DNA of 32,000 bases from Erysipelotrichaceae bacterium (GCA_963676105.1 OY781039.1:960001-992000), one strand, 5' to 3'. Positions 3,244 to 32,000 are shown, numbered from the stretch's first letter. The notes: generated from the sequence alone by a model not told the origin. A program made the numbers and translations.

Positions 3244-4133
3244 TTACTTCTTTAAATACTGATTCACTTCAAGTTGAATGCCCTCTTCAAAGTTCATCGG
3301 ATTATAGTTGAAATCTTTCTTGGCTTCAGCATGAGGATAACTTCTATCCTCACCCATACGTTGAACTCTTTCTACATAATCTATTTTTCCAAGTGTCAGC
3401 ACCTTGGCAATTTGAGCAAGTACAACCCCAAGTCCTAAAGGAACACTGACAAGTGTTGTTTTCTTATTGAGTTTATCGCTTATCATCTTAAAAACTTCTA
3501 TCATCTGTAGAGGCTTTTCACCTGATAAGTCATAAGCCTTTCCAGCTGTTTTTTCAGGAGATGTCAAAACAGTATAAAATGCTTTTCCTAAATCCCTTGC
3601 ATTTACTGGTTGTATTAAACTTCTCCCACCGTTGATAACCGGCATCATTCTAAATTTATCTATCATCTTAATGAATTTACTCATATTGCTATCACACAGA
3701 TCACCATAAATCATCGTTGGCCTTAGAATAGTAACTTTAGTAGGAGAATTTGATTTTGAAGTCAATTCAGAAACTTTCTTTTCCACATCCTTATATCCTT
3801 GAGAAGCATATTTAAAGTTTGAGTATATTCCTGTTGTATGTACTAAGATTGCTCGCTTTACATTGTTCTCGATAGCTGCTTCTACAATCATCGGTGAATG
3901 ATGGATGTTATAGATGTGCATAATAGCGTCTACTCCTTTGACAGTTTTTCTTATGAACTCCTTGTTGTTGAGATCTCCATAAACCTTCTCAATATTTAAT
4001 CCGCTGTTATCCAACATTGAAGTGTCAGATGTTTCCCTAACAATGCAGCGGATTGGTCTTCATATTTATGATCAATAAGTTCTTGTAAGAAATAGCTGCC
4101 TGTATGTCCTGTAATCCCTGTCACTAATAACAT
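3244..4133 (-). pseudogene. SDR-family NAD(P)-dependent sugar reductase/epimerase split by a 1-nt frameshift
   Basis: The N-terminus MLLVTGITGHTGSYFLQELIDHKYED (ATG 4133-4131, RBS GGGGTGGGAAG) lies in the frame of track ORF 3996..4250. The natural continuation (P)IRCIVRETSDTSMLDNSGLNIEK... is in the frame of ORF 3244..4017. The switch must occur within GAAGACCAATC (about 4050-4060), consistent with loss of one C from GAC-CCA. Confidence 0.7.
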
Positions 4134-4143
4134 CTTCCCACCC

Positions 4144-4767
4144 CTAATGTTTCGCTGACTCTTTATCAGCTTTTTTCGAACCAGTCCCACCTTCAACAAC
4201 ACCATCACTTCTAAGAACACTAAATATCGTCCCAAAGAAGCATCTGACATCCATCATAAACCCAATCTTCTCAGCATACTCTCCATCAAGTCTCGCCTTA
4301 ACATCAATCTCAAGCTCGTCTCTACCATTAATCTGCGCCCAACCTGTAAGACCAACTGGCACGTCATTTGCACCATACTTGTCTCTTTCTTCAATCAAAT
4401 CATATTGATTCCAAAGAGCCGGCCTTGGACCGGTGATGCTCATTTCACCCTTAAAAATATTGATGATTTGTGGTAGTTCATCTAAGCTTGTCTTTCTTAA
4501 GAACTTACCTACCTTCGTAATCCACTGATCAGGATTTTCCAAAAGATGTGTTGGGGTTTCCTTGGGTGTATCAATCCTCATTGTTCTAAACTTCAATATA
4601 TTAAAATGACTCTTTTGGATTCCGACACGTTTTTGTTTGAACAGCACCGGGCCTGGAGAGTCTAGTTTAATCGCTATTATGAGTACTAATAAAACAGGAG
4701 ATAAAATTATAAGACCGAGTGTTGAAAGTATGATATCTATTAATCTTTTGATTTTTAAGTAAACCAT
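4144..4767 (-). CDS. Small phosphoglycosyl transferase (Bac_transf; PglC / WbaP C-terminal type), initiating enzyme
   Basis: 207-aa ORF with a single N-terminal hydrophobic helix. Motifs include PGPVLFKQKRVG, KFRTM, DELPQ and PRP. The RBS is GGCAGGAGGAA. Confidence 0.9.
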   Translation of the reverse strand: MVYLKIKRLIDIILSTLGLIILSPVLLVLIIAIKLDSPGPVLFKQKRVGIQKSHFNILKFRTMRIDTPKETPTHLLENPDQWITKVGKFLRKTSLDELPQIINIFKGEMSITGPRPALWNQYDLIEERDKYGANDVPVGLTGWAQINGRDELEIDVKARLDGEYAEKIGFMMDVRCFFGTIFSVLRSDGVVEGGTGSKKADKESAKH

Positions 4768-5019
4768 GTTTAGTTCCTCCTGCCCTATGTAAATGTATGT
4801 ATGATGTGCTTGAGAGCACTTAATTTTCTTGATCTATATGTAGTGTTTTGATTGATTCTAGGTACTATATCTTGCATAATTCTGTGTTTTGATTGGATGC
4901 TTAGACGTGTAATGCTTCTGTAACATTAGTACATGTGTCTGTTGTTCTGAAACCCTTGATATTACTGACTTACAGCCTGTTTATCCTTTCACCATACTCA
5001 CGTCGTTGTTATAATCCAT

Positions 5020-5349
5020 TCATAAAAAAGGAACTTCATCATCTTCAGTTGATTCATCACAGTACATATGATTATTTGAATAGTAAATTAAATACTTACT
5101 TGTAAACTCACTATAGTTATCATTCAAAAAATCAGTCAATAATAAATCAGAATGATTAACATCGTTTTGAATAAGATGCAATTTGTAGTGGCTTTCAATA
5201 ATTCTACAATTTTTTTCTACTTGAGTTTATTATGCTTTATGTATAAAGGAATAAATACTCGGTATTACTAATAAAGATAAGATTGACATAATTAATATAA
5301 CAACTATTAACACGATTAGCGTAAATCCATTTTTATCTTTTAGAATCAT
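5020..5349 (-). pseudogene. Type IV pilin/pseudopilin-like ORF interrupted by tandem in-frame stops (TAA TAA)
   Basis: My translation is MILKDKNGFTLIVLIVVILIMSILSLLVIPSIYSFIHKA-stop-stop-TQVEKNCRIIESHYKLHLIQNDVNHSDLLLTDFLNDNYSEFTSKYLIYYSNNHMYCDESTEDDEVPFL-stop. It spans 110 codons in a single frame, with stops at 5232-5227. The leader K-x-G/FTLI plus a ~22-aa hydrophobic helix resembles a class III (prepilin) signal, but Glu+5 is Val. No clear RBS. It falls below the ORF-track length cut-off. Confidence 0.35.
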
Positions 5350-18394: not shown

Positions 18395-19342
18395 ATGGCC
18401 GTAAAACCAACTAGTCTTCATAGTCAGTTAAAACTATTAAAAGATAGACATCTAATCATCGATAAGGATGAAGAATATATTTTAAAATTTCTTGAACAGA
18501 ATAATTACTATCGTATTCGTGGTTATTTTGATCATTTATATGAAAACGAAAAACAAGACTCATTTATTAACGGATCTAGTTTTTCATATATTCAAAATAT
18601 ATATGAGTTTGACTCTACACTAAGATTAATAATAAATCATTTTATAGAAGATATTGAAATATTTACGCGATCAATATTTGCACATTATTTTTCTCTCAGT
18701 CTTAATGATGCTTTCTTTTTATACAATGATGATATTTTTCACTTTAATGAATATGGAAGTAAAGTAGAAAAGGTAAGGACAAACTTAAATCGATATATTC
18801 ACAATCATAAAAAATCAAAAATCGTAAAACACTACACAATAGATGATAAATGTTTACTTCCCATTTGGGCATCTATTGAATTTCTATCATTTGGTGATAT
18901 TTCAATGCTATACCAAAGCGTCCAACGACAATACTCAAAAGAATTTTTATCAAAATATTTTAAAATTGATCAAAGAAATGTCTCTCTAATATTAAACAGT
19001 TGGTTGTTTAGTTTGACTAAATTAAGAAACATTTCGCATCACTTTGAAAGACTTTTTGATATCAAGCTAAAAGAATCACCACCTAAACTTTATTCTATAA
19101 CCAACTTAAATCATTTGTATTCAATGACTAGTGATAATCAAATGAGTTTGTTTAGTCATGTTTTTATAGCATCTCTTATTAATCCTAAATCTGAAAGTAT
19201 TGATAAATTTATTGAAGGAATAATAAAGTTACAAATCGAATATCCTAATGTCAGCTTAGAAAATTATGGTTTCCCTTGTAATTGGGAGAATATCTTACGA
19301 TATTCAATTAGTTATTTAGTTCATGAAGATAAGCGACAATAA
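18395..19342 (+). CDS. Abi_2-family abortive infection protein (AbiD/AbiD1/AbiF-like, HEPN-type)
   Basis: 315 aa. The N-terminus (QLKLLKDRHLIIDKDEEYILKFLEQNNYYRIRGYF...FSYIQNIYEFDSTLRLII...EDIEIFTRSIFAHYF) is typical of the family. An R-x4-H HEPN-like motif occurs in KLRNISHHFERLF. The RBS is GGGGGA. Confidence 0.85.
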   Translation: MAVKPTSLHSQLKLLKDRHLIIDKDEEYILKFLEQNNYYRIRGYFDHLYENEKQDSFINGSSFSYIQNIYEFDSTLRLIINHFIEDIEIFTRSIFAHYFSLSLNDAFFLYNDDIFHFNEYGSKVEKVRTNLNRYIHNHKKSKIVKHYTIDDKCLLPIWASIEFLSFGDISMLYQSVQRQYSKEFLSKYFKIDQRNVSLILNSWLFSLTKLRNISHHFERLFDIKLKESPPKLYSITNLNHLYSMTSDNQMSLFSHVFIASLINPKSESIDKFIEGIIKLQIEYPNVSLENYGFPCNWENILRYSISYLVHEDKRQ

Positions 19343-23326: not shown

Positions 23327-24173
23327 AATTCGAGTACCCGCTACTTCAGCAAATATAGGTTCTGGTTTTGATGAGTTAGGACTAGCTGTAGAACTCTATG
23401 CCTATGTTTCTTTTGACTTTGCTGATGAATATACTTATGAAGGACTAGAAGTACGTTATCAAAAAGATAACTTGATTAAAGAAGCTTATGAGTATACCTG
23501 CAAACAAGAAAACTTTGAGATTAAACCCTTAAGTATCCATTTAAGTTCTGATGTCCCTATTGCGCGTGGTTTAGGATCCTCTTCAAGTTTAATAGTAGCT
23601 GGTGTCACAGCTGCTTATTTACTCAATGACAAAGGCTTAGATAAAGATCAAATTCTAAAACATTCAGTCGACTTAGAAGGTCATCCTGATAATGTAGCTC
23701 CAGCCATTTATGGAGGCTTAATCCACTCTATTAAAGAAAATGGCAGCTATACCATTCATTCATTAGATTTAAGTAATGATTTAATTTTTACTTTCCTAAT
23801 TCCTGACTTTGAACTATCCACTAAACTAGCACGTTCTGTGCTCCCTCAGACTTATCCAGATAAAATACTTGACTTAGCCTCACATAAACTAAAAAACCTG
23901 ATCAAAGGCTTAAAAGAAGCTGATATGGATTTAATCAGTGATGGTTGTGATGATGTGATACATCAACCTTATCGTTTCCCACTCATCAAAGATGTTGAAT
24001 GTATAAAAAAAGAATTGGCTAAACAAGCTATACAATCACTCTTTCTATCAGGAGCTGGCCCTACCTTAGGAATTATCACAAAAAAAGCATTGAAATTAGA
24101 TTTATCACAGTGTGAAGCTGATTGGTCTTTTAATCAATTAAATATTGATCATGAGGGTGTAAAAATCTTATGA
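23319..24173 (+). CDS. thrB: Homoserine kinase (GHMP family)
   Basis: 284 aa. It has VPATSANIGSGFD and the GHMP motif PIARGLGSSSS. It overlaps thrC by 8 nt. Confidence 0.9.
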   Translation: MIKIRVPATSANIGSGFDELGLAVELYAYVSFDFADEYTYEGLEVRYQKDNLIKEAYEYTCKQENFEIKPLSIHLSSDVPIARGLGSSSSLIVAGVTAAYLLNDKGLDKDQILKHSVDLEGHPDNVAPAIYGGLIHSIKENGSYTIHSLDLSNDLIFTFLIPDFELSTKLARSVLPQTYPDKILDLASHKLKNLIKGLKEADMDLISDGCDDVIHQPYRFPLIKDVECIKKELAKQAIQSLFLSGAGPTLGIITKKALKLDLSQCEADWSFNQLNIDHEGVKIL

Positions 24174-24607
24174 ATAAGCAATATCTAATTGTAAATAAAA
24201 AGATATTACCTGATAACTTTGAAAAGGTATTAGAAGCTAAAGCACTATTAGATTCTCACAGCGCAAAAGATATTTCAGACGCCTGTAAAAAAGTCGGTTT
24301 ATCACGCTCAAGCTTTTATAAATTCAAAGATATGGTCTTTAGTGCAGAAGAAGAGAAACAAACGCGTAAAGTCGTTATCTCTTGTAGTTTAAATCATACC
24401 CAAGGGATACTCTCAAATCTACTACATCATATTGCGGCTCATCAAGCTAATATACTAACGATAACTCAAAACTATCCACTACAAAATCATGCTTATGTGG
24501 TTATAATGTTAGATATATCAGATATGTTAATATCTGTCGAAAACTTAATCCAAGAACTAAATGGCATTGATAATGTGACTAATGTAAAACTGATATCCAT
24601 TGAATAG
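24170..24607 (+). CDS. ACT-domain protein (UPF0735 / PheB-like)
   Basis: 145 aa. An HTH-like segment (ISDACKKVGLSRSSFYKFK) precedes a C-terminal ACT fold. An ATGA overlap links it to thrB. Confidence 0.75.
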   Translation: MNKQYLIVNKKILPDNFEKVLEAKALLDSHSAKDISDACKKVGLSRSSFYKFKDMVFSAEEEKQTRKVVISCSLNHTQGILSNLLHHIAAHQANILTITQNYPLQNHAYVVIMLDISDMLISVENLIQELNGIDNVTNVKLISIE

Positions 24608-24620
24608 ATATCAGTTTTTT
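24566..24620 (+). repeat. Direct repeat DR1a: last 13 codons plus terminator of the ACT gene, left boundary of the 3.3-kb islet
   Basis: ATTGATAATGTGACTAATGTAAAACTGATATCCATTGAATAGATATCAGTTTTTT recurs at 27928-27983 with 2 substitutions and one extra T. Confidence 0.9.
24590..24620 (+). terminator. Rho-independent terminator of the thrC-thrB-ACT operon
   Basis: CTGATATC-cattgaata-GATATCAG followed by T6. The stop codon TAG (24605-24607) sits in the loop/stem junction. Confidence 0.8.
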
Positions 24621-24637
24621 ATTTACACACAACCAAT

Positions 24638-24732
24638 ACTATCATAATAATTTTTATACCCTATTGATAGTTGGATAAACAATGGTATACTTTAACTATC
24701 ATAAATATTTTTATATTCTATTGATAGTTGGA
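24638..24732 (+). promoter_or_regulatory. Two 38-bp direct repeats at a 57-bp period, each with an internal inverted repeat, containing a candidate promoter for the kinase operon
   Basis: Copies at 24638-24675 and 24695-24732 are 34/38 identical: ACTATCATAA(T/A)(A/T)ATTTTTATA(CC/TT)CTATTGATAGTTGGA. Each carries AACTATCA...TGATAGTT arms. TTGATA (24664-24669), a 16-nt spacer and TATACT (24686-24691) form a good sigma-A promoter, placing copy 2 just after the predicted start site. Confidence 0.55.
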
Positions 24733-24738
24733 GGACAT

Positions 24739-25599
24739 ATGGATTATAGCGATTTCCCTCTTAATAATAAAATATATTCTGGTGCAGAGAGAAAAATAGG
24801 AATCACAATACAAGATGAAGACTATATATTAAAATTTCAAAAGAAAACAGCTTTTGGATATCGAAACAATCATATCTCCGAATACTTAGCGTGTAGAATC
24901 ATAGGGAGCATGGGTTTTAATGTGCAGGAAACTTATCTTGGTACTTATAATGGCCAAGAAGTCGTCGCAATTAAAGATTTTGTTGAAAATCATCAACAGT
25001 TTGTTGCGTTTAACGATTTAGGAGAAAGTAGTATTGAAGCAGATCGCAAACGTTTCACTTATTCATACGAAGATATCACTGAAATATTGAAATCTAATAA
25101 TAAATTGAAGAATCCAGAAGATACCATACGTCAATTTTGGAACTTATATATATTAGACGCCTTACTTGGCAATTTTGATCGTCATGGTGGTAATTGGGGA
25201 TTTATCAAAGAGAAGAATCAATATACACTTGCGCCAATCTTTGATAATGGTTCTAGTTTATACCCAAGTTTGACAGATGAAACAACGATGTTAAAGATTA
25301 TGTCTGATGTTAATGAGACGAATAAAAGAATTTATACTTTCCCGACATCCCAAATACTACTAAATGGTAAAAAGAGTTCATATTATGAAGTTATCAATAG
25401 TTTAAGATTTAAAGAATGTAATGAATCATTAAAAAAAATTTATGCAAACTTTGATATGAACAAAATAATTTTCATAATTAATCAAACTAACTTTATCACG
25501 AATACGCAAAAAGACTTTTATAAATACATCATAGAAAAAAGGTTTATAACCATAATTAAATCCAGTTATGAAAGGCTAATAAGAAATGAAAGAACATAG
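24739..25599 (+). CDS. Short HipA_C-like Ser/Thr protein kinase (HipA/CtkA family, no HipA N-terminal domains)
   Basis: 286 aa counted from the ATG at 24739, which has a GGAGGA RBS. The track start at 24682 is the duplicated, RBS-less copy 57 nt upstream. The catalytic region is LYILDALLGNFDRHGGNWGFI...YTLAPIFDNGSSLYPS, matching HipA D-x-H-x-x-N and the Mg-binding (F/Y)D. The candidate ATP lysine is in DYILKFQKK. Confidence 0.75.
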   Translation: MDYSDFPLNNKIYSGAERKIGITIQDEDYILKFQKKTAFGYRNNHISEYLACRIIGSMGFNVQETYLGTYNGQEVVAIKDFVENHQQFVAFNDLGESSIEADRKRFTYSYEDITEILKSNNKLKNPEDTIRQFWNLYILDALLGNFDRHGGNWGFIKEKNQYTLAPIFDNGSSLYPSLTDETTMLKIMSDVNETNKRIYTFPTSQILLNGKKSSYYEVINSLRFKECNESLKKIYANFDMNKIIFIINQTNFITNTQKDFYKYIIEKRFITIIKSSYERLIRNERT

Positions 25600-26404
25600 T
25601 ACAAAAGCTATTATATACGCAACAGATCAAAATAATGTAGACTATGCTGTTGCCACAATTGAACAAATCTTATTTGAAGATGATTCCTTCGAATACCGGT
25701 TCATTCCAAATTATAGTGTCATAAATTTAACCAATAGTAGTTTCTTTCAAGGAATACCAGGTTTGAATCTTGAATTAAAAAAAGAACAGTATGTTAGAAA
25801 CGACAGTATTCCAACATTTATATATGAGCGTACTCCTCAAAAAAACAGAGAAGATCTTTGGTCTCTTTTAGAAGAAGTAAAACTAGATTATTATAATCCT
25901 CTAGAATGGTTAATTAGATCAAATAAAATCTATACAGGCGACAAACTAATTGTAAAACCTTATACTGAACCTAGCACAAAAAATACGTTAGATACTATCC
26001 ATGCCAATGATACTTTCAATCTAAAAAGTATTAACGATATCGCAAACACTAATTTTCTAAAGCTTAAAAAAACATTAGAAATTATTGTAAATGGTGCAAA
26101 TTTAAATGCTGGACACTTTGTTATAAACGATGAAAACCGACAATCTTTATATACACTCATATACAATCTTTATATTAATGAGCGAAATTTTAGAAGAATA
26201 AAGCAAAAGCAAGGTATAGAACGTTCTAAAAACAAATATAAAGGTCGATCTAGAAAAAAAATATCCTATCCAAAACTTGTTGAAATAATGACATTGTACG
26301 AAAACAAAGACATAACAAAAGAACAAGCCATGTTATCGCTTGATTTACAATCAGAAGCAACATTTTACAGAAGATTAAAAGAATTTAGAATGCACTCTAA
26401 ATAA
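25586..26404 (+). CDS. Kinase-partner protein: unassigned N-terminal ~190 aa plus C-terminal basic linker and resolvase-type HTH
   Basis: 272 aa. It overlaps the kinase gene by 14 nt. The C-terminus is ERNFRRIKQKQGIERSKNKYKGRSRKKISYPKLVEIMTLYENKDITKEQAMLSLDLQSEATFYRRLKEF. This follows the pattern ER-x9-G...YKGR-x-RK plus an HTH ending S-x-x-T-F-Y-R, as in small serine recombinases. The N-terminus lacks the Y-x-R-V-S-T catalytic motif (it has IIYATDQNN). Confidence 0.6.
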   Translation: MKEHSTKAIIYATDQNNVDYAVATIEQILFEDDSFEYRFIPNYSVINLTNSSFFQGIPGLNLELKKEQYVRNDSIPTFIYERTPQKNREDLWSLLEEVKLDYYNPLEWLIRSNKIYTGDKLIVKPYTEPSTKNTLDTIHANDTFNLKSINDIANTNFLKLKKTLEIIVNGANLNAGHFVINDENRQSLYTLIYNLYINERNFRRIKQKQGIERSKNKYKGRSRKKISYPKLVEIMTLYENKDITKEQAMLSLDLQSEATFYRRLKEFRMHSK

Positions 26405-26478
26405 ACATATATCCCTATTATCAACACAAAATTCGCAATATTATTAGGTCATATTAATTAATTTAATTTAACAACCTT

Positions 26479-26509
26479 ATAATCTACATAATCGTAAGGT
26501 TGCTAATTA
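26479..26509 (+). repeat. Direct repeat DR2a (31 bp, hairpin-forming) upstream of the ATPase gene
   Basis: ATAATCTACATAATCGTAAGGTTGCTAATTA is identical to 28050-28080. With its flank it forms CAACCTTA-15 nt-TAAGGTTG. It contains TTGCTA as a possible -35 for the ATPase gene. Confidence 0.85.
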
Positions 26510-26547
26510 TTATAGTAAGTGTTAAATTAATGATAGAGGTATTTACT

Positions 26548-27918
26548 ATGTTTATTGGAAGAGAAAAAGAACTAGTAGTATTAGAGAATCAATACATAAG
26601 TAATCATTTTGAATTCACTGTTTTATATGGCAGAAGACGAATTGGTAAAACTGAATTATTAAAGCAATTTATCAAAGATAAAGAAGCTATTTATTACATG
26701 GCTATTGAAGCAACACATCAAACAAATCTTGAAATGTTGTCAAAAGCAGTACTTATGAATAATTCACAATCTTTTGCGTCCTTTAAAGATTATGAGCAAA
26801 TATTTAAATATTTAACTAAACACTCTTTAGATAAACGTTTAACGTTCATCATCGATGAATTCCCATACTTAGCACAATCCACACCTGAAATTGCGTCACT
26901 TATCCAACGTTTTTGTGATCATGATTGGAAAGAAACGAAATTGCATTTAATATTATGTGGGTCATCTATGAGTTTTATGGAGGAACAAGTTCTTGGTATC
27001 AAAAGTCCACTTTATGGTAGACGTACTGCTCAGATAAAACTGAAACCTTTTAATTACTTTGAAAGCGAAAAATTTTTAAAACCCATGAAAAAAGAAGATA
27101 TTGCCATATTGCATAGTGTAACTGGTGGTATTGCAGAGTATCTAAGCTACATTGATACAAAAAGAGATCTAGAACATAATATTATCGAATTATTTTTAAA
27201 GGATTCAGGTCGCTTATATGAAGAACCAATTAACTTTTTAAAACAAGAACTTAGAGAACCTAAAGTTTATAACAGTCTTTTAAACGCAATTGCGAATGGC
27301 GCAAGTAAGAATAATACGATTGCGACAAAAGTGAGCATGCAAACAGGTTCTATAAGTAAATATATAAATAACTTATTGGAACTAGGTATCATAAAAAAAG
27401 AAACACCCATACTCAACACTAGTACACGCAAAACAATTTATAGAATTGCTGATGGAACCTATCGTTTTTGGTATATTTTCGTATTACCTAATTTAAGTGC
27501 TATCGAACTTGGTTTGGGAAAGAAAGTTTATACAGATATTATTTATCCAAAACTAAATGAGTTTATGGGCGAAGCATTTGAACAAATATTTTTAGATTAT
27601 TTTGATCAATTAAATAGTTATTCAAAACTACCAGAACTCATTACGTCCAGAGGTCGATGGTGGGGCAACAATCCTAAAGAAAAAAGAGAAGAAGAAATCG
27701 ATTGTATAGGTTTAGGTTTATCCACAACAATTTTTTGCGAAGTCAAATGGACGCATAAACCTATCGACTTGAAAGTGCTTGAAAACTTAATAAGAAAAAG
27801 TGAATTACTCAATAGATTTAATCCACATTACATTCTTTTCAGCAAAAATGGGTTTACAGAAAGTCTTATTACACAAACAAAAAAACATAAGAATATAAGC
27901 TTAATATCTTTTCTCTAA
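26548..27918 (+). CDS. ATP-binding protein: Arch_ATPase (PF01637-type) AAA domain, wHTH and C-terminal DUF234 nuclease-like domain
   Basis: The start is the ATG at 26548 (RBS AGAGGT); the track start at 26500 is a TTG. The N-terminus FIGREKEL is followed by Walker A GRRRIGKT and Walker B FIIDEFPYL. A wHTH-like segment (IATKVSMQTGSISKYINNLLELGIIKKE) precedes the C-terminal RGRWWG...EIDCIGL...CEVKW. Confidence 0.8.
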   Translation: MFIGREKELVVLENQYISNHFEFTVLYGRRRIGKTELLKQFIKDKEAIYYMAIEATHQTNLEMLSKAVLMNNSQSFASFKDYEQIFKYLTKHSLDKRLTFIIDEFPYLAQSTPEIASLIQRFCDHDWKETKLHLILCGSSMSFMEEQVLGIKSPLYGRRTAQIKLKPFNYFESEKFLKPMKKEDIAILHSVTGGIAEYLSYIDTKRDLEHNIIELFLKDSGRLYEEPINFLKQELREPKVYNSLLNAIANGASKNNTIATKVSMQTGSISKYINNLLELGIIKKETPILNTSTRKTIYRIADGTYRFWYIFVLPNLSAIELGLGKKVYTDIIYPKLNEFMGEAFEQIFLDYFDQLNSYSKLPELITSRGRWWGNNPKEKREEEIDCIGLGLSTTIFCEVKWTHKPIDLKVLENLIRKSELLNRFNPHYILFSKNGFTESLITQTKKHKNISLISFL

Positions 27919-27927
27919 ATCAAAAGT

Positions 27928-27983
27928 ATTGATAATGTAACTAATGTAAAACTGATATCCATTCAATAGATATCAGTTTTTTT
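27928..27983 (+). repeat. Direct repeat DR1b: relic copy of the ACT-gene 3' end plus terminator, right boundary of the islet
   Basis: It encodes IDNVTNVKLISIQ-stop, against ...IDNVTNVKLISIE-stop in the intact gene. The hairpin CTGATATC/GATATCAG (27952-27976) plus T7 now lies 34 nt after the ATPase stop and can serve as its terminator. Confidence 0.9.
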
Positions 27984-27989
27984 ACAAAT

Positions 27990-28032
27990 AAAATGAAAAG
28001 TCCCAAAATAAATCAATGACTCTATTGGGACT
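27990..28032 (-). terminator. Candidate terminator of ChW protein gene 1
   Basis: The minus strand reads AGTCCCAA-18 nt loop-TTGGGACT followed by TTTTCATTTT. The large loop lowers confidence. Confidence 0.45.
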
Positions 28033-28049
28033 AATCAATTAGCAATAAC

Positions 28050-28080
28050 ATAATCTACATAATCGTAAGGTTGCTAATTA
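28050..28080 (+). repeat. Direct repeat DR2b, immediately downstream of the ChW gene 1 stop
   Basis: 31/31 identical to 26479-26509. Degenerate similarity extends about 11 nt further upstream. Confidence 0.85.
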
Positions 28081-28085
28081 GTGGC

Positions 28086-29480
28086 TTATGATTCTGGATT
28101 AATCCCAACACATTCCATCTCATCAATTTCTGTATATGTATAGTCAGATGAACCCGCTGTTGTATTAATTGTAAACATATACCATGTACAATTTCCACCA
28201 CTTACCCCATTTAAAACATTCGCAATTGTAGGAGCATCACCATCATAAGAAAGTTGATAATCCAAAGTTGTTGATAGCGATAGTGTTAATGAATGTTCTA
28301 ACTCTGTGCCACGATATAAATTAACTACATCCCCAAAGTTATAACTACCACCTGATAATTCACCATAATAAATATATGTTCCTGTATATGAATCATAAGC
28401 AGTTGTAACAATTGTTTCTGTGAAAGGTCTGTTTGCTTCACTATCACTTTGTTCATCATTTAACAGCTCTACATTATGATACGTCATAAAGTTATAATAA
28501 ACAGTTGTAGCATCATTCCCATCATCCACATTAACTAAGAAGTCCAAATTACCATCGGATGCCCATATAAATTTGGCTGTTAAATCCGTAGAAGTGTTTG
28601 AGACAGTGGTAGCAGGTGCTGGTGCAACATAAACTCTTTGTACAATCTCTATTCTATATGCAGTAAGTGCTTTATTAATGCCTGGTGCACCAGCTGTTTG
28701 TCCATCATAGACGTATCCCCACCACTCACCTTCTACTTGTGGTTGAATTTGTACACTGTATTGTGGTAAATCAACTAATCGTGCTTCTATTGCTTCAATG
28801 ATGGAACCACTTGAACCTAGAACTGATCCATTACTTGCCCAATTAGTCCATCCACTATTTCTAATATAGGCTCTGTATTCAATAGAACCACTATCAGCTG
28901 ATATTAGATTCATGGATACTGTTTCAAGTGAACCAGTTCCTTGTGTTTCACCATTCGCTCTTAAGACTTGTGTTACTCCACCAATACTTGATTGATAGTT
29001 AACACCTATTTCATCGACTTTAACTCTAAAACCAGTAATTGGATAAGCAGAGTTTAATTGACCACTTGTTGATCCATTACTTACCCATATACCCCAACCT
29101 AAGCCTTTACGATAGCTTTGATAATAGACATTCGCGTTTGGAAAGTCTTTAAGCTGTATTTGTAAACCTAAGATATCTTCATTATTATGGTTAGCTCTTT
29201 GCCAAGTACTAAACCACTCTGACCAACCAGATGCAGTATAAACTCGATACTCTACACCTGATGCATAAGGACTATCCACTAGATGAATTTCTAGACTATC
29301 TAAAGGATCTCCTCCTTCAGTTCCGGCTAATGCTCCACCATAGGCAAAGTCAGTCCATACCCCATCATTTTGCCCTTGATAACCAACATTTACATTAAAG
29401 TAGTCTGTAGCCAACACAGGCATTTGCATCATGAAAAAAGCACATGATGCGACTATAATCTTTATTATCTTTTTAAGCAT
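28086..29480 (-). CDS. Secreted ChW-repeat (clostridial hydrophobic W) protein with a unique C-terminal domain
   Basis: The start is the ATG at 29480 (MLKKIIKIIVASCAFFMMQMPVLA signal peptide, RBS AAGGGAGG) rather than the track start at 29504. Repeats include VEYRVYTASGWSEWFS, VYYQSYRKGLGWGIWVSNGSTSG and IEYRAYIRNSGWTNWASNGSVLGSSGSIIEAIEARL. A VYVAPAP hinge is followed by a ~175-aa unassigned C-terminus. Confidence 0.8.
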   Translation of the reverse strand: MLKKIIKIIVASCAFFMMQMPVLATDYFNVNVGYQGQNDGVWTDFAYGGALAGTEGGDPLDSLEIHLVDSPYASGVEYRVYTASGWSEWFSTWQRANHNNEDILGLQIQLKDFPNANVYYQSYRKGLGWGIWVSNGSTSGQLNSAYPITGFRVKVDEIGVNYQSSIGGVTQVLRANGETQGTGSLETVSMNLISADSGSIEYRAYIRNSGWTNWASNGSVLGSSGSIIEAIEARLVDLPQYSVQIQPQVEGEWWGYVYDGQTAGAPGINKALTAYRIEIVQRVYVAPAPATTVSNTSTDLTAKFIWASDGNLDFLVNVDDGNDATTVYYNFMTYHNVELLNDEQSDSEANRPFTETIVTTAYDSYTGTYIYYGELSGGSYNFGDVVNLYRGTELEHSLTLSLSTTLDYQLSYDGDAPTIANVLNGVSGGNCTWYMFTINTTAGSSDYTYTEIDEMECVGINPES

Positions 29481-29713
29481 TTCAAATGCCTCCCTTTTAA
29501 TCACATCATAAGAAGGTGAAATGGAAAATTAAATAGAACGAAAGTGCTAATTTAGAGATTAAATAGTTCTATATAAGCTTAAAAGTATAGTACATGTAAA
29601 ACACTAGAAATTATGAGTACTGATTTAACAAATAATTAGCAAAATCACAATATACAAGAACATGTTCTTTCTAACTGAATGTTATCTTGTATATATAGCA
29701 ACAAGGAATCTAA

Positions 29714-29797
29714 ACATTTTTATGAAGAGAAAAAGAACTAGAATTATTAAACCAACAATATTATTTAGATCAATTTTAACTTACATTAATCTATGAA
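29714..29797 (+). pseudogene. Decayed 5' remnant of a second Arch_ATPase/DUF234 paralog
   Basis: It aligns codon for codon with the start of the 26548 gene. The remnant reads TFL*REKELELLNQQYYLDQF*LTLIYE, against MFIGREKELVVLENQYISNHFEFTVLYG. An 18-nt block, GAAGAGAAAAAGAACTAG, is identical at 29724-29741 and 26558-26575. The start codon is lost and there are two in-frame stops. Homology is lost before the IS30 end at 29851. Confidence 0.6.
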
Positions 29798-29850
29798 TAT
29801 AACGTGTTGGTCTCCAATTTCCCACTTCTTTCTTATATTTTATATTATTC

Positions 29851-31065
29851 CTAAATTGCAATATCAAGTTGTCCACTTTTTGAAATAAAGAAAACAAGAA
29901 TCATTAAGTTGTTTGTATTTGATTAAAGTGGAAGAGAATTGATTCAGTTGGTGTTTGATAGTTGAGTATCTTACGAAGTAAGTGGTTCATGGAATGAACC
30001 ACATGGTCGATTGTTTATTTAGATATCGTTTTTAATGATTTGCCTTTAGGGATAGATCGTCTTATCAAACTATTATGTCGCTCATTAGTGCCTCGTTCCC
30101 AAGAAGAATAGGAATGAGCGAAGTAGACATCGCTTAAGTCATTTATCATTTCAGTTAATCCTGCAAACTCGGAACCATTATCACTGGTAATCGATTTGAA
30201 GATCTGTGGAAGATGTGGATGACTTTGATTTAGTTGTTTAGCTCCTTCATTAACAGCTTCTTCATATTTGCCTTTAATCTTAAGAATGATTTGATAACGA
30301 GTTAGTCTTTCAGTCATGGTAAGCAAAACCGATTCATCCTTTTTCTTCTTTCCGATGACTGTATCAATCTCCAAATATCCAAAGGTGCTTCGATTATTGA
30401 TCGCTTGAGGTCTTAAATCGATTGATTGACCTACTACTCTACGATGATCTCTAACTTTCTTAGATTTGGTCTTACGTCGAAGTTTTAACCATAGATTTAG
30501 ATTATTCAATTCTTTGATTAAACCTCTATCAATATAGTTGTATAGGGTCTTAGCACAGACTGTTTCAGTTTGATCAAATAAACCTTCTTTTAAAGCTTGC
30601 CCAACAACATTATCAGGTGATCATTTATCAACACTTATCTTTTGAGTAGCGTAACCGATGAAAGCTTGTACTTTGGCCAGCTTTGGCTGTGGTCTACACT
30701 TCCAACGATATTTCTCATAAAGAATTGGCCAGTCTCTGCATAGTAGTTCTCAGAATAATAAGTATAACCATTCACAATCTTCTTTTGTATCGCTAATCTA
30801 CGTTTGATTTCATCATTAATCGTTGAGTGACTCCGCTTGAGATTTATAGCAATTCGTCGTTTTGAATAGCCTAATCGTTTCTGTGTTTGAATTTCAATTC
30901 GTTCAGACAAACTTAAATGTTGTCCTTTAGTTCTAGTCGTTATATCATTGTGTTTCATCATCCATAAGCCCTTTCTCATGTGTTTCACAACTTAATGAAA
31001 CTAGGATTCTTATGAATGGTGCTTTTTTTTTTTTAATGGGTGGACGACTTCATTTTACAATCGAG
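29851..31065 (-). mobile_element. IS30-family insertion sequence (~1.2 kb), inactivated
   Basis: The terminal inverted repeats CTAAATTGCAATATCAAGTTGTCCAC (29851-29876) and the reverse complement of 31040-31065 (CTCGATTGTAAAATGAAGTCGTCCAC) match at 20 of 26 positions. They enclose IS30-type transposase reading frames. No matching target-site duplication was seen at these ends. Confidence 0.75.
29904..30988 (-). pseudogene. IS30-family DDE transposase with two frameshifts and one in-frame TGA
   Basis: The N-terminal HTH is HLSLSERIEIQTQKRLGYSKRRIAINLKRSHSTINDEIKRR. The first frameshift is near 30735-30745 (YYAETGQ / LYEKYRWKCRPQPKL). A TGA at 30621-30623 replaces the conserved Trp of K-W-SPD. 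The DDE core is EIDTV...ITSDNGSEF...WERGTNE. The second frameshift is near 30015, before TIDHVVHSMNHLLRKILNYQTPTESILF. Confidence 0.8.
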
Positions 31066-31157: not shown

Positions 31158-32000
31158 TTAAGATGCAATCCAAACAAGGTAATTTTGTTCAGGATCAGTA
31201 TCATCAATATCCCAATAACCATCACCATTGTCATTTTCTTCTTCATAAACACCTAGCATTACAATACCATTTAGATGTTCTGGATCACCACTTGGATAGA
31301 CATCTGTGTATCCATCAACTGTTGAATCTTCGTTGTCAAATAAAATCATTGTATGCGTTGGAACAGGGTCTGTTAAATATGAATAGCTATTAAAATCACC
31401 ACCTGTAATAGTAAAGATGTTGTCAACATAAGTACCTAAATAAACTTCATATTGGCTACTATTAACAGCATCGTCACCACTGTTATTAAAAGTATCGATA
31501 ACAGGGATTTGATCGTCAGCTCCACTAAATTCAACAACTGTTAAACCAGTAACTCGATAAGGTGAGACTAATTGAGTATTACTCCAACTTACATTTTCAG
31601 TACCTGAACCAAACGGATCGTCAAAACCATCCCCATCAACATCCAACGTTAATGGTGTTGTGTTTATTGTGCTACCACCACCAACTATAACTGCAGGTTC
31701 TTCAACAACTACAACTGGTGCTGGTGCCACATAGACTTGTCGTACAATTTGTACTCGATAAGCTGTTAAAGCTGTAGTATAGGATCCTGCCATTGCACCA
31801 TCATAAGCCCAGTCCCACCATACACCATCTACTTGTGGTTGAATACCGACATGATAAGAACTTAAACCAACTAATCGGGCTTCTAAACCTGTAATCACAT
31901 CCCCTGAACGCTCTGATCCTACAACAGCCATATTACTTGACCACTCAGACCAGCCACTATTCATAAAGTGTGCTCTATATTCAATTAAATCTTCAGTATC
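31158..32000 (-). CDS. ChW-repeat secreted protein paralog 2, 5' end beyond window edge
   Basis: The frame stays open past the track's Met: my translation of 32000-31965 gives DTEDLIEYRAHF, continuing into MNSGWSEWSSN..., which is a ChW repeat. It shares ...LEARLV.L..Y.V.IQPQV.G.WW...YDG..AG....ALTAYR..IV..VYVAPAP with gene 1, and then has a different Asp/Gly-rich C-terminal domain. Confidence 0.75.
   Translation of the reverse strand, partial: DTEDLIEYRAHFMNSGWSEWSSNMAVVGSERSGDVITGLEARLVGLSSYHVGIQPQVDGVWWDWAYDGAMAGSYTTALTAYRVQIVRQVYVAPAPVVVVEEPAVIVGGGSTINTTPLTLDVDGDGFDDPFGSGTENVSWSNTQLVSPYRVTGLTVVEFSGADDQIPVIDTFNNSGDDAVNSSQYEVYLGTYVDNIFTITGGDFNSYSYLTDPVPTHTMILFDNEDSTVDGYTDVYPSGDPEHLNGIVMLGVYEEENDNGDGYWDIDDTDPEQNYLVWIAS

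Follow-up and report, generated by a model that had tools for sequence, protein, structure and literature searches.

The locus lies within a window of 32,000 nucleotides, the whole stretch of Erysipelotrichaceae bacterium DNA that was analysed. It begins at the end of a threonine operon whose final gene, a core gene encoding an ACT-domain protein (24170-24607; NCBIfam PRK04435, 1e-49), shares 91-99% identity with its counterparts in sister genomes. This gene's last 13 codons, together with a terminator hairpin with a 12-bp stem and a T-run, form the first copy of a direct repeat (24566-24620); the second copy (27928-27983) is a non-coding relic of the same gene end and terminator. Between the copies are three genes, all on the plus strand like the ACT gene and the repeats: a 286-residue HipA-family kinase (24739-25599), a 272-residue partner protein whose gene overlaps that of the kinase by 14 nt (25586-26404) and, after a 143-nt spacer, a 456-residue ATPase (26548-27918). 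A check on the window showed the repeat, the three genes, the overlap and the spacer to be as the original prediction had described them. The further claim that no integrase, transposase or tRNA lies in or beside the islet stands in part: there is no tRNA anywhere in the window and no integrase between the repeats, but a decayed IS30-type transposase gene, the only nearby candidate, lies 2 kb downstream. It is a minus-strand pseudogene (30015-30988) whose HTH_38 and rve ORFs are out of frame with each other.

The kinase contains a HipA_C domain alone (Pfam, 1e-20) and, as had been predicted, lacks the HipA N-terminal domains. It matches the PADLOC PDC-M03A HMM over its full length (6e-31). A Gly-rich SGAERK motif is found at residues 14-19, and an alignment of 30 family members shows that G15, E17, K19, K32, the D147-R-H-G-G-N152 segment and D169-N-G are invariant. 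The catalytic GNFDRHGGNWGF and APIFDNGS motifs are likewise invariant in 66 family members. By analogy with the HipA family and with a tested HipA-like/DUF3037 system, we infer that this presumed toxin would be a growth-arresting effector.

The partner divides into two parts: a conserved domain at residues 1 to about 130, and a resolvase-like region at about 137-272. The C-terminal half is homologous to gamma-delta/Tn3 resolvase, including the helix-turn-helix (HTH) that had already been recognised at its end. An hmmsearch of a partner profile against PDB chains matched residues 54-181 of gamma-delta/Tn3 resolvase (E 7e-4 to 1e-3), and a structural model of the partner (pLDDT 92.5) gave Tn3 resolvase as its top Foldseek match (E 1e-4). 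The model contains a helix (185-217), an invariant Gly220-Arg221 pair and an HTH (228-271), equivalent to the E-helix, GR arm and C-terminal HTH of the resolvases. Distant relatives of the partner match the Pfam Resolvase family at positions 50-145 only. In the partner itself the homology starts at about resolvase residue 54, so that the catalytic region with the Ser10 nucleophile is missing, and the positions equivalent to the D67/R68/R71 pocket fall in variable alignment columns. This half is a resolvase-like module without the catalytic serine region.

The N-terminal domain of the partner resembles neither HipS nor HipA N-subdomain-1 (hhalign probability 0.2%) and has no fold match in the PDB (best E 0.055). 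Pfam detects no HIRAN domain in the partner. PADLOC models were found for the kinase and, as described below, for the ATPase, but none matched the partner even at E <= 10. Among 304 clusters the domain is almost always N-terminal, in proteins of 245-320 residues. There are two exceptions, in which it is carried on STAND NTPases of 1,472-1,476 residues; on all four contigs that carry such a fusion a HipA_C gene is immediately upstream, and comparison of the two complete kinases with the window kinase gave identities of 41% and 49%. We propose that the N-terminal domain is the kinase-facing part of the partner, although a role as sensor or substrate is an alternative.

The kinase and partner genes form a tight two-gene accessory module of toxin-antitoxin (TA) or defence type, kinase first, that is found in at least 282 species genomes. 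When only loci with room on the contig were counted, an intact kinase was directly upstream of the partner in 65 of 73 partner-anchored loci, mostly with gaps of -44 to +15 nt; the remainder comprised four kinase remnants and four solo partners. In the reciprocal count the partner was directly downstream in 73/73 kinase-anchored loci. Both the pairing and the kinase-first order put forward in the original prediction are borne out by these loci. Decay is one-sided, with an intact partner beside a broken or missing kinase at six loci with room and the reverse at none, and this fits a toxic kinase and a partner that is its antidote. The organisation, which had been thought to match no system that could be named, is that of hipMP, in which a short kinase is encoded first and is followed by a putative antitoxin resembling gamma-delta resolvase (Gerdes et al. 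2021, mBio; PMC8262856).

Upstream of the kinase gene a motif, nnnnTCAAAAATAAA...ATnCTATTGAnnnn, recurs across phyla. In the window it corresponds to an operator-like palindrome, ACTATCA-N21-TGATAGT (24638-24675), the right arm of which contains a -35-like TTGATA. A consensus scan places a putative promoter here on the plus strand (24664-24691), comprising TTGATA, 16 nt and TG-TATACT, with 10 of 12 matches and an extended -10 element. A second operator-like palindrome, 57 nt past the first (24695-24732), abuts the GGAGGA ribosome-binding site; it is kept at loci L082/L083 and L001-L003. Across the family the four outermost bases of one operator arm co-vary with those of the other (ACTA/TAGT, TGTG/CACA, TGCG/CGCA, AGTA/TACT and TTTG/CAAA), and 28 of 66 loci have perfect 8-bp arms, compared with 11 of 330 shuffles. 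The coincidence of the -35 box with the right operator arm explains part of the conservation of that arm, and leaves the co-varying left arm unexplained.

The two repeat copies (24566-24620 and 27928-27982) are identical at 53 of 55 positions, with a single additional T in copy 2. A search for a 35-nt repeat core that allowed up to 3 mismatches gave exactly two occurrences in the window (0.00 expected from shuffles). The repeated material is larger than first described, since it includes a second repeat pair and a relic operator. This second pair, of 42 nt and 88% identity with the last 28 nt identical, is interleaved with the first: one copy, element D3a (26468-26509), is a hairpin-forming sequence just 5' of the ATPase gene, and the other, D3b (28039-28080), abuts the 3' end of the ChW gene. 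The relic operator, AGTCCCAA-N18-TTGGGACT (27992-28031), is of the hipMP type with no gene behind it, and over 47 nt it shares 85% identity with the operator that directly precedes the kinase start in L091.

Comparison with relatives shows that the site just downstream of the threonine operon is variable between lineages and is occupied by different anti-phage genes, which agrees with the earlier view of the locus as accessory. The pair is missing from the sister genomes L081 and L089. In L081 unrelated genes lie between the end of the ACT gene and an 81-nt relic of that end, which is orthologous to the copy-2 relic; the relic operator is also orthologous to the L081 spacer. L089/L090 have AbiE at the site. 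hipMP lies at the same junction in L083/L082, with no second repeat copy, and at the same site in L091/L092; in L083 it is there alone, and its proteins are about 70-72% identical to those of the window in full-length comparison. In L091 AbiLi/AbiLii intervene between the ACT gene and hipM, without a repeat.

These comparisons bear on the possibility that the islet is a 3.3-kb integrative element, targeted site-specifically to the ACT-gene 3' end, for which it carried a replacement, and mobilised by an integrase in trans, such that the repeats are attL and attR. A direct repeat at a gene 3' end, here 53/55, is the hallmark of elements of this kind, the different cargo between the ACT end and its relic in L081 could reflect repeated use of an att site, and the GC content is 28.9-30.1% compared with 33.9% in the thr operon. 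Neither cargo, however, encodes an integrase, recombinase or excisionase, no tRNA is present, and the resolvase-like part of the partner lacks the catalytic region. Copy 2 is moreover followed by the relic operator and D3b, and the supposed att site would therefore belong to a second, degenerate copy of the module's flanks; nor do L083/L082 or L091, as described above, have a second repeat copy to accompany hipMP. We consider an integrative element unlikely. A recent, discrete insertion of the islet finds no support either, as hipMP is at the same site in L083/L082 and L091/L092, and copy 2 is followed by the remnant of a different hipMP allele. No precise empty site (ACT gene, one repeat, ChW gene) was found among five related lineages. 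From the reconstruction based on these lineages, the duplicated ACT-gene end is probably a scar of allele turnover rather than a clean att site.

Because the pair adjoins the thr operon both in this genome and in three relatives, one may ask whether it consists of a signalling kinase and its transcription factor, with a role in host physiology such as the control of threonine or aminoacyl-tRNA metabolism. Of about 60 other loci, 3 have ThrRS-like genes flanking the pair, and aminoacyl-tRNA synthetases are targets of HipA-family kinases (Gerdes 2021, PMC8262856). Against this, the neighbourhoods of hipMP across 80 genomes are heterogeneous, without a conserved metabolic partner. The distribution is patchy, with losses in L081 and L089, and decay of the kinase with retention of the partner is typical of toxins. 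AbiL or AbiE occupies the same site in relatives, and the STAND-fused versions point to conflict systems. A role in host signalling is thus quite improbable, and the evidence suggests a role in defence. Two observations weigh the other way: elsewhere the neighbours of hipMP are mostly housekeeping genes, defence and mobile-element genes being a minority, and no copy was found among 2.9 million viral contigs.

The third gene was correctly predicted to encode an ATPase with DUF234. It contains ATPase_2 (7e-24) and DUF234 (7e-19) domains in Pfam together with a winged helix, and residues 2-423 match positions 4-436 of the 474 in the PADLOC PDC-S27 HMM (7e-59). PDC-S27 is a one-gene candidate by definition, and according to the literature validation is pending for most such PADLOC candidates. 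The original prediction had the ATPase, taken to be nuclease-like, riding along with the pair, all three genes forming one three-component TA or defence system; they are indeed adjacent on the same strand within one repeat bracket, and both parts match PADLOC candidate models. Yet no ATPase/DUF234 homologue was found at any of 80 partner-anchored loci (within 6 kb) or 80 kinase-anchored loci (within 3.5 kb), and L083/L082 carry the pair without it. The ATPase gene has its own upstream element and the 143-nt spacer, and the window holds a second, truncated ATPase_2/DUF234 gene, of which the first ~25 codons follow a diverged third D3-like copy (29634-29800, plus strand). We regard a three-gene system as very improbable. 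The ATPase would instead be a stand-alone unit, a candidate PDC-S27 protein functionally not tied to the kinase pair.

The resolvase homology of the partner, and the palindromic sites resembling res subsites, of which two are 57 nt apart, might suggest that it works as a serine recombinase to move or invert the cassette. This is extremely improbable, as the Ser10 region is replaced by an unrelated domain, the D67, R68 and R71 equivalents fall in variable alignment columns, and the operators lie at the promoter in every locus and not at the cassette ends.

The organisation of the locus is probably best explained by two independent accessory units, the hipMP pair (24638-26404) and the ATPase (26548-27918), that lie side by side in a hotspot. 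For the pair, we suggest that the short HipA-family Ser/Thr kinase would be a growth-arresting effector, held in check by the conserved N-terminal domain of the partner. The catalytically dead, resolvase-derived half of the partner, with its E-helix dimer, GR arm and HTH, would bind the two operators, which overlap the promoter and the ribosome-binding site, and thereby repress the operon. Were the partner lost or inactivated, through proteolysis or a phage cue, the kinase would be freed to stop growth, in a TA or abortive-infection role. The second unit would be the ATPase/winged-helix/DUF234 protein of PDC-S27 type. As to the hotspot itself, copy 2, the relic operator and D3b may represent the flanks of an earlier occupant rather than the att site of a self-mobile element.

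Several known systems resemble one or other of these units. The third gene matches the PDC-S27 model nearly end to end, in ATPase_2, winged helix and DUF234, with no notable difference. The kinase shares its superfamily and catalytic motifs with HipBA and HipBST, and lacks N-subdomain-1 like HipT. The order is reversed, however, the upstream neighbour is the ACT gene rather than hipB, and the DNA-binding module is of resolvase type, not Xre/HipB type. Membership of HipBA/HipBST is ruled out by the lack of an upstream HipB and of any HipS-like sequence or fold. The kinase of hipIN/PDC-M03 is related, as the PDC-M03A match indicates, and is also encoded first; its partner, PDC-M03B, combines a HipS-like with a HIRAN domain, and the window partner has neither, which together with the hhalign result rules out its membership, and PADLOC would not be expected to call PDC-M03 at this locus.

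A functional model for the pair is offered by the two-gene system of a HipA-like kinase and a DUF3037 protein (PADLOC PDC-M66, similar to the validated DS-6 and tested in Retron-Sda1), in which deletion of the kinase abolishes phage defence and deletion of the partner is toxic (PMC12548924). The partner family differs here, with no DUF3037 match in Pfam at E <= 10, and the kinase has no PDC-M66 match. STAND/NLR-like immune proteins are connected to the module through the two partner relatives in which the N-terminal domain is joined to an nSTAND3/NB-ARC-type NTPase of about 1,475 residues, directly downstream of a short kinase; the window partner itself lacks an NTPase and is linked to these proteins without belonging to them.

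The closest counterpart is hipMP, and the window pair, assigned by its architecture, matches every descriptive feature of it. In the published classification HipM is a subclade of main clade XI (PMC8262856). The HipM-type kinase is short and core-only, with the Gly-rich loop near its N terminus, and at 286 residues lies within the 279-321 reported for hipMP (PMC8262856). The HipP-type partner is encoded immediately downstream and resembles gamma-delta resolvase by both hmmsearch and Foldseek; for hipMP the antitoxin is postulated to bind DNA and autoregulate (PMC8262856). This architecture is thus already classified, contrary to the idea of an undescribed module: hipMP has been described from sequence, and toxicity of the kinase, neutralisation by the partner and DNA binding are its predicted properties. 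Compared with the five examples described previously without domain dissection (PMC8262856), the family now extends over the species genomes counted above. Its partner can be divided into a conserved N-terminal domain, also found fused to STAND NTPases next to a short kinase, and a resolvase derivative without the catalytic part, and it has a candidate palindromic operator whose arms co-vary across the family.

The kinase gene (positions 24739-25599; 286 residues, with HipA_C, 1e-20, as its only Pfam domain) and its partner gene (25586-26404; 272 residues), which overlap by 14 nt, form a pair of the hipMP type, comprising a HipM kinase and the putative antitoxin HipP, and behave as an obligate two-gene unit. 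The partner has 456 database relatives, mostly ∼260-285 residues long and lacking any Pfam domain among the matches listed, and a scan of species-representative genomes found it encoded in at least 282. Neighbourhoods were compared for the best 80 loci of that set, 73 of which had room upstream. An intact kinase homologue lay directly upstream of the partner in 65 of the 73, mostly with a 4-nt overlap or a 4-nt gap between the genes; four had kinase remnants only and four had a solo partner. In the converse, kinase-anchored comparison on metagenome contigs, a partner homologue was present downstream of 73/73 kinases with room, so that the predicted co-occurrence of the two genes in other genomes held from both sides. 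Decay of the pair is one-sided. A split, truncated or absent kinase adjoins an intact partner at six loci with room, and an intact kinase next to a broken partner was found at none of the loci in the examined set, which is the pattern expected if the kinase is harmful without its partner. Across 66 homologues there is little or no variation in the SGAERK Gly-rich motif, Lys32, the DRHGGN catalytic loop or the FDNGS magnesium site and, judged by these motifs, the kinase is catalytically intact.

The hipMP organisation occurs commonly in Bacillota and spirochaetes. In other genomes the neighbours of the pair (148 genes) are heterogeneous, with none conserved, and include regulators, SpoVA, glycoside hydrolases and three ThrRS-like genes. 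Mobile-element functions are present (Relaxase-domain matches in four proteins and MobA/MobL in two, possibly overlapping, plus two recombinases), as are defence functions (PDC-S01 in four, JetB in two, PsyrT in two and CapH in two). No partner homologue was found on viral contigs. The pair behaves as an independent module of two genes that is shuffled horizontally. The accessory kinase module of toxin-antitoxin or defence type at a variable site that had been proposed is real. The three ThrRS-like proteins, from hipMP loci L001-L063, carry tRNA-synt_2b, HGTP_anticodon and tRNA_SAD domains, and in the window the pair adjoins the threonine operon, an association that may be due to chance or to common descent of a few loci, or may hint at the kinase target.

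A profile of 30 partners matches the gamma-delta and Tn3 resolvases over resolvase residues 54-181 (E 7e-4 to 1e-3), the AlphaFold model of the partner (pLDDT 92.5) has Tn3 resolvase as its top Foldseek match (E 1e-4), and two distant relatives match Pfam Resolvase, at positions 50-145 only. The C-terminal half of the partner therefore keeps three resolvase features, namely the long E-helix, an invariant Gly220-Arg221 arm and the helix-turn-helix. The N-terminal strand and the helix bearing the resolvase serine nucleophile are missing, and the equivalents of resolvase Asp67, Arg68 and Arg71 fall in variable columns of the partner alignment. We read the C-terminal half as a putative non-catalytic, dimerising, DNA-binding resolvase derivative.

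Two 35-nt palindromes, ACTATCA-N21-TGATAGT, spaced 57 nt apart, lie upstream of the kinase. The first (24638-24675) overlaps a promoter-like TTGATA-16-TGnTATACT and the second (24695-24732) abuts the ribosome-binding site. The motif TCAAAAATAAA...ATnCTATTGA lies ahead of the kinase in most of 66 loci from Bacillota and spirochaetes; its outer four arm bases co-vary (ACTA/TAGT, TGTG/CACA, TGCG/CGCA, AGTA/TACT and TTTG/CAAA), and perfect 8-bp arms are found in 28/66 loci compared with 11/330 shuffles. The right arm is conserved in part because it doubles as the -35 box, but this role leaves the compensating changes in the left arm unaccounted for. As the partner is the sole DNA-binding protein of the module, the natural interpretation is that it would repress its own operon, binding these palindromic putative operators as a dimer. 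We infer that the co-varying palindrome is a recognisable candidate operator of hipMP.

The best conserved part of the partner is its N-terminal domain of ∼130 residues, with 28 invariant positions that fall in motifs including FQGIPG, PxFIxERxPxxNR and LEWL. This domain matched no Pfam family at E <= 10, and neither PDB nor viral structures provided a fold match for its confident model (pLDDT 90.2; best E 0.055 and 0.028). A HipS-like identity of the domain was rejected at the level tested (hhalign probability of 0.2% against HipA N-subdomain-1). No HipA or HipS chain was found with the partner profile among PDB sequences at E <= 10, nor among the Foldseek PDB matches listed for the whole model and the domain model.

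Exhaustive HMM searching with the N-terminal domain returned 304 clusters, almost all of them proteins of 245-320 residues with the domain at the N terminus. In the two exceptions, P0220 and P0221 (1,472 and 1,476 residues), a STAND NTPase (nSTAND3, AAA_16, NB-ARC) comes after the domain. A HipA_C gene lies immediately upstream of the STAND fusion in 4/4 contigs (L085-L088); the two complete STAND-linked kinases compared, of 258 and 287 residues, are 49% and 41% identical to the window kinase, and the fused N-terminal domain is 33% identical to that of the window partner. The kinase accompanies the N-terminal domain whatever its fusion partner, and the domain is therefore the likely kinase-facing part of the partner. 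The domain also links the partner family to NLR-like conflict systems. The STAND fusions with their upstream kinases may themselves form an NLR-like system in which the kinase is the effector. A wider model, which we offer tentatively and consider rather doubtful, is that the N-terminal domain is an undescribed kinase-control domain coupling HipM-type kinases either to a resolvase-derived repressor, as in hipMP, or to a STAND NTPase sensor. Under this model hipMP would be the simplest form of an immune system with a kinase as effector, its partner having two roles, repression of the operon and restraint of the kinase until a phage signal arrives.

The end of the ACT-domain gene (24170-24607; NCBIfam PRK04435, 1e-49) is duplicated, as originally noticed. 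Its last 13 codons and hairpin terminator (24566-24620) recur at 27928-27982 with 53/55 identity and one extra T in the T-run of the second copy. Between the copies are the three predicted genes on one strand, the pair being followed after 143 nt by an ATPase_2 plus DUF234 gene (26548-27918; 456 residues). A second repeat pair (26468-26509 and 28039-28080; 42 nt, 88% identical, with the last 28 nt identical) is interleaved with the first and had been overlooked. Its first copy, D3a, lies between the partner stop codon and the ATPase start and could fold into a hairpin whose 12-bp stem (TTAACAACCTTA / TAAGGTTGCTAA) is paired at 11/12 positions; it may serve as a terminator, a regulatory site or a site of recombination. 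The original prediction had found no tRNA or transposase in or beside the islet. No tRNA was detected in the whole window by a tRNA scan, and an Rfam scan of the window matched no family. The absence of a transposase holds between the repeats, but an IS30-type transposase pseudogene (30015-30988, minus strand, with its HTH_38 and rve parts in separate frames) had been missed 2 kb downstream.

The region after the ACT gene was compared in five related lineages whose ACT proteins are 76-99% identical to that of the window. They were reached through cluster members, as exact-sequence searches with the window partner and ACT proteins gave no recorded contig. One lineage (L083/L082) has hipMP only, without the ATPase and without a second repeat copy. 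Another (L091/L092) has AbiLi and AbiLii, after which come operators of the form AGTACCAA..TTGGTACT and the beginning of a hipM kinase gene (L091 1658-3505 and 3590-3690), and a third (L089/L090) has an AbiEii fragment and AbiEi (L089 7419-7916; L090 1637-2251). In L081, four unrelated minus-strand genes are followed by an 81-nt relic of the ACT end (77%), a spacer orthologous to that of the window and a ChW gene, so that the bracket is shared with the window but the cargo differs. The comparison with sister strains, proposed as a search for an empty site, thus bore out the variability of the locus, but it returned the same bracket with other cargo in L081 and hipMP without a second repeat in L083/L082. 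The bracket is better explained as a recombination scar than as proof of a discrete mobile islet.

The sequence beyond the second repeat copy also bears on its origin. The 40 nt at 27992-28031 form a perfect palindrome, AGTCCCAA-N18-TTGGGACT. Over 47 nt this relic shares 85% identity with the operator directly before the L091 kinase, and after it comes the ATPase upstream element in its second copy (28039-28080). Compared within the window, the sequences after copies 1 and 2 have no significant similarity (score 15 against a shuffle mean of 17), and their likeness surfaced only via L081 and L091. Positions 27928-28080 resemble flanks left behind by a previous occupant, with an ACT end and terminator, a putative operator from another hipMP allele, and the upstream element of the ATPase. 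An integrative element driven by an integrase in trans is possible, but is a less economical reading than a recombination scar. The segment does not resemble a simple target duplication. A dispersed repeat is ruled out within the window, as the 35-nt core with <=3 mismatches has exactly two copies in 32 kb (0.00 expected).

Between the window and L083 the kinases are 72% and the partners 70% identical, compared with 87-99% for flanking core genes, as would be expected from rapid evolution or from exchange of alleles at a long-occupied site. On its other flank, the thr operon carries an Abi_2 (AbiD/AbiF-like) gene in the window (18395-19342, plus strand; Pfam 3e-35) and AbiEi/AbiEii with a DEAD/AEP helicase in L083, and both sides of the operon therefore look like variable defence sites. 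The locus clearly exemplifies a small hotspot of defence genes next to a biosynthetic operon. The ChW-repeat (clostridial hydrophobic W) genes around it (28086-29504 and 31158-31964 in the window, minus strand; 3628-5037 and 13321-14676 in L081) are paralogous, share 70-80% DNA identity and probably encode surface proteins; they are substrates on which homologous recombination near the hotspot could act.

Contrary to what had been suggested, the ATPase does not belong to the module. No homologue was found near 160 other hipMP loci, partner- and kinase-anchored, and sister lineages hold the pair without it. The protein matches PDC-S27, a single-gene PADLOC candidate, almost end to end (7e-59), and it appears to be an unrelated neighbour or passenger that should be scored apart from the kinase pair in annotation. 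A diverged ATPase-upstream element with the start (∼25 codons) of another ATPase_2/DUF234 gene (29634-29800, plus strand) is cut off beside the IS30 remnant.

Although the architecture was first taken to be undescribed, it had already been classified as hipMP by Gerdes, Baerentsen and Brodersen (mBio 2021; PMC8262856), who sorted HipA homologues by gene organisation and postulated that HipP binds DNA and autoregulates. The window pair agrees with every descriptive feature of hipMP, a match of description alone. The survey included five hipMP modules, presented without experiments, and our literature search found no later paper on it, placing hipMP among the least studied branches of HipA kinases. 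The present analysis adds how widespread and how strict the coupling is, the dissection of the partner domains, the co-varying candidate operator, the STAND-fused relatives and the hotspot picture. The frequency of hipMP, its obligate pairing, its candidate operator and the N-terminal domain that recurs on STAND NTPases combine into a concrete model, with predicted toxicity and rescue, operator binding and phage response, and also connect toxin-antitoxin kinases with NLR-like immunity. PADLOC holds the sister organisation hipIN, a HipA-like kinase with a HIRAN protein, as PDC-M03 (PMC13245101). The window kinase matches PDC-M03A (6e-31) whereas the partner matches no PADLOC model, and because the partner is not modelled, current defence finders of this type would be expected to miss the pair. 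The functional precedent is the pair of a HipA-like kinase and a DUF3037 protein (PDC-M66; similar to the validated DS-6), in which deletion of the kinase abolishes defence against phage Bas51 and deletion of the partner is toxic (PMC12548924).
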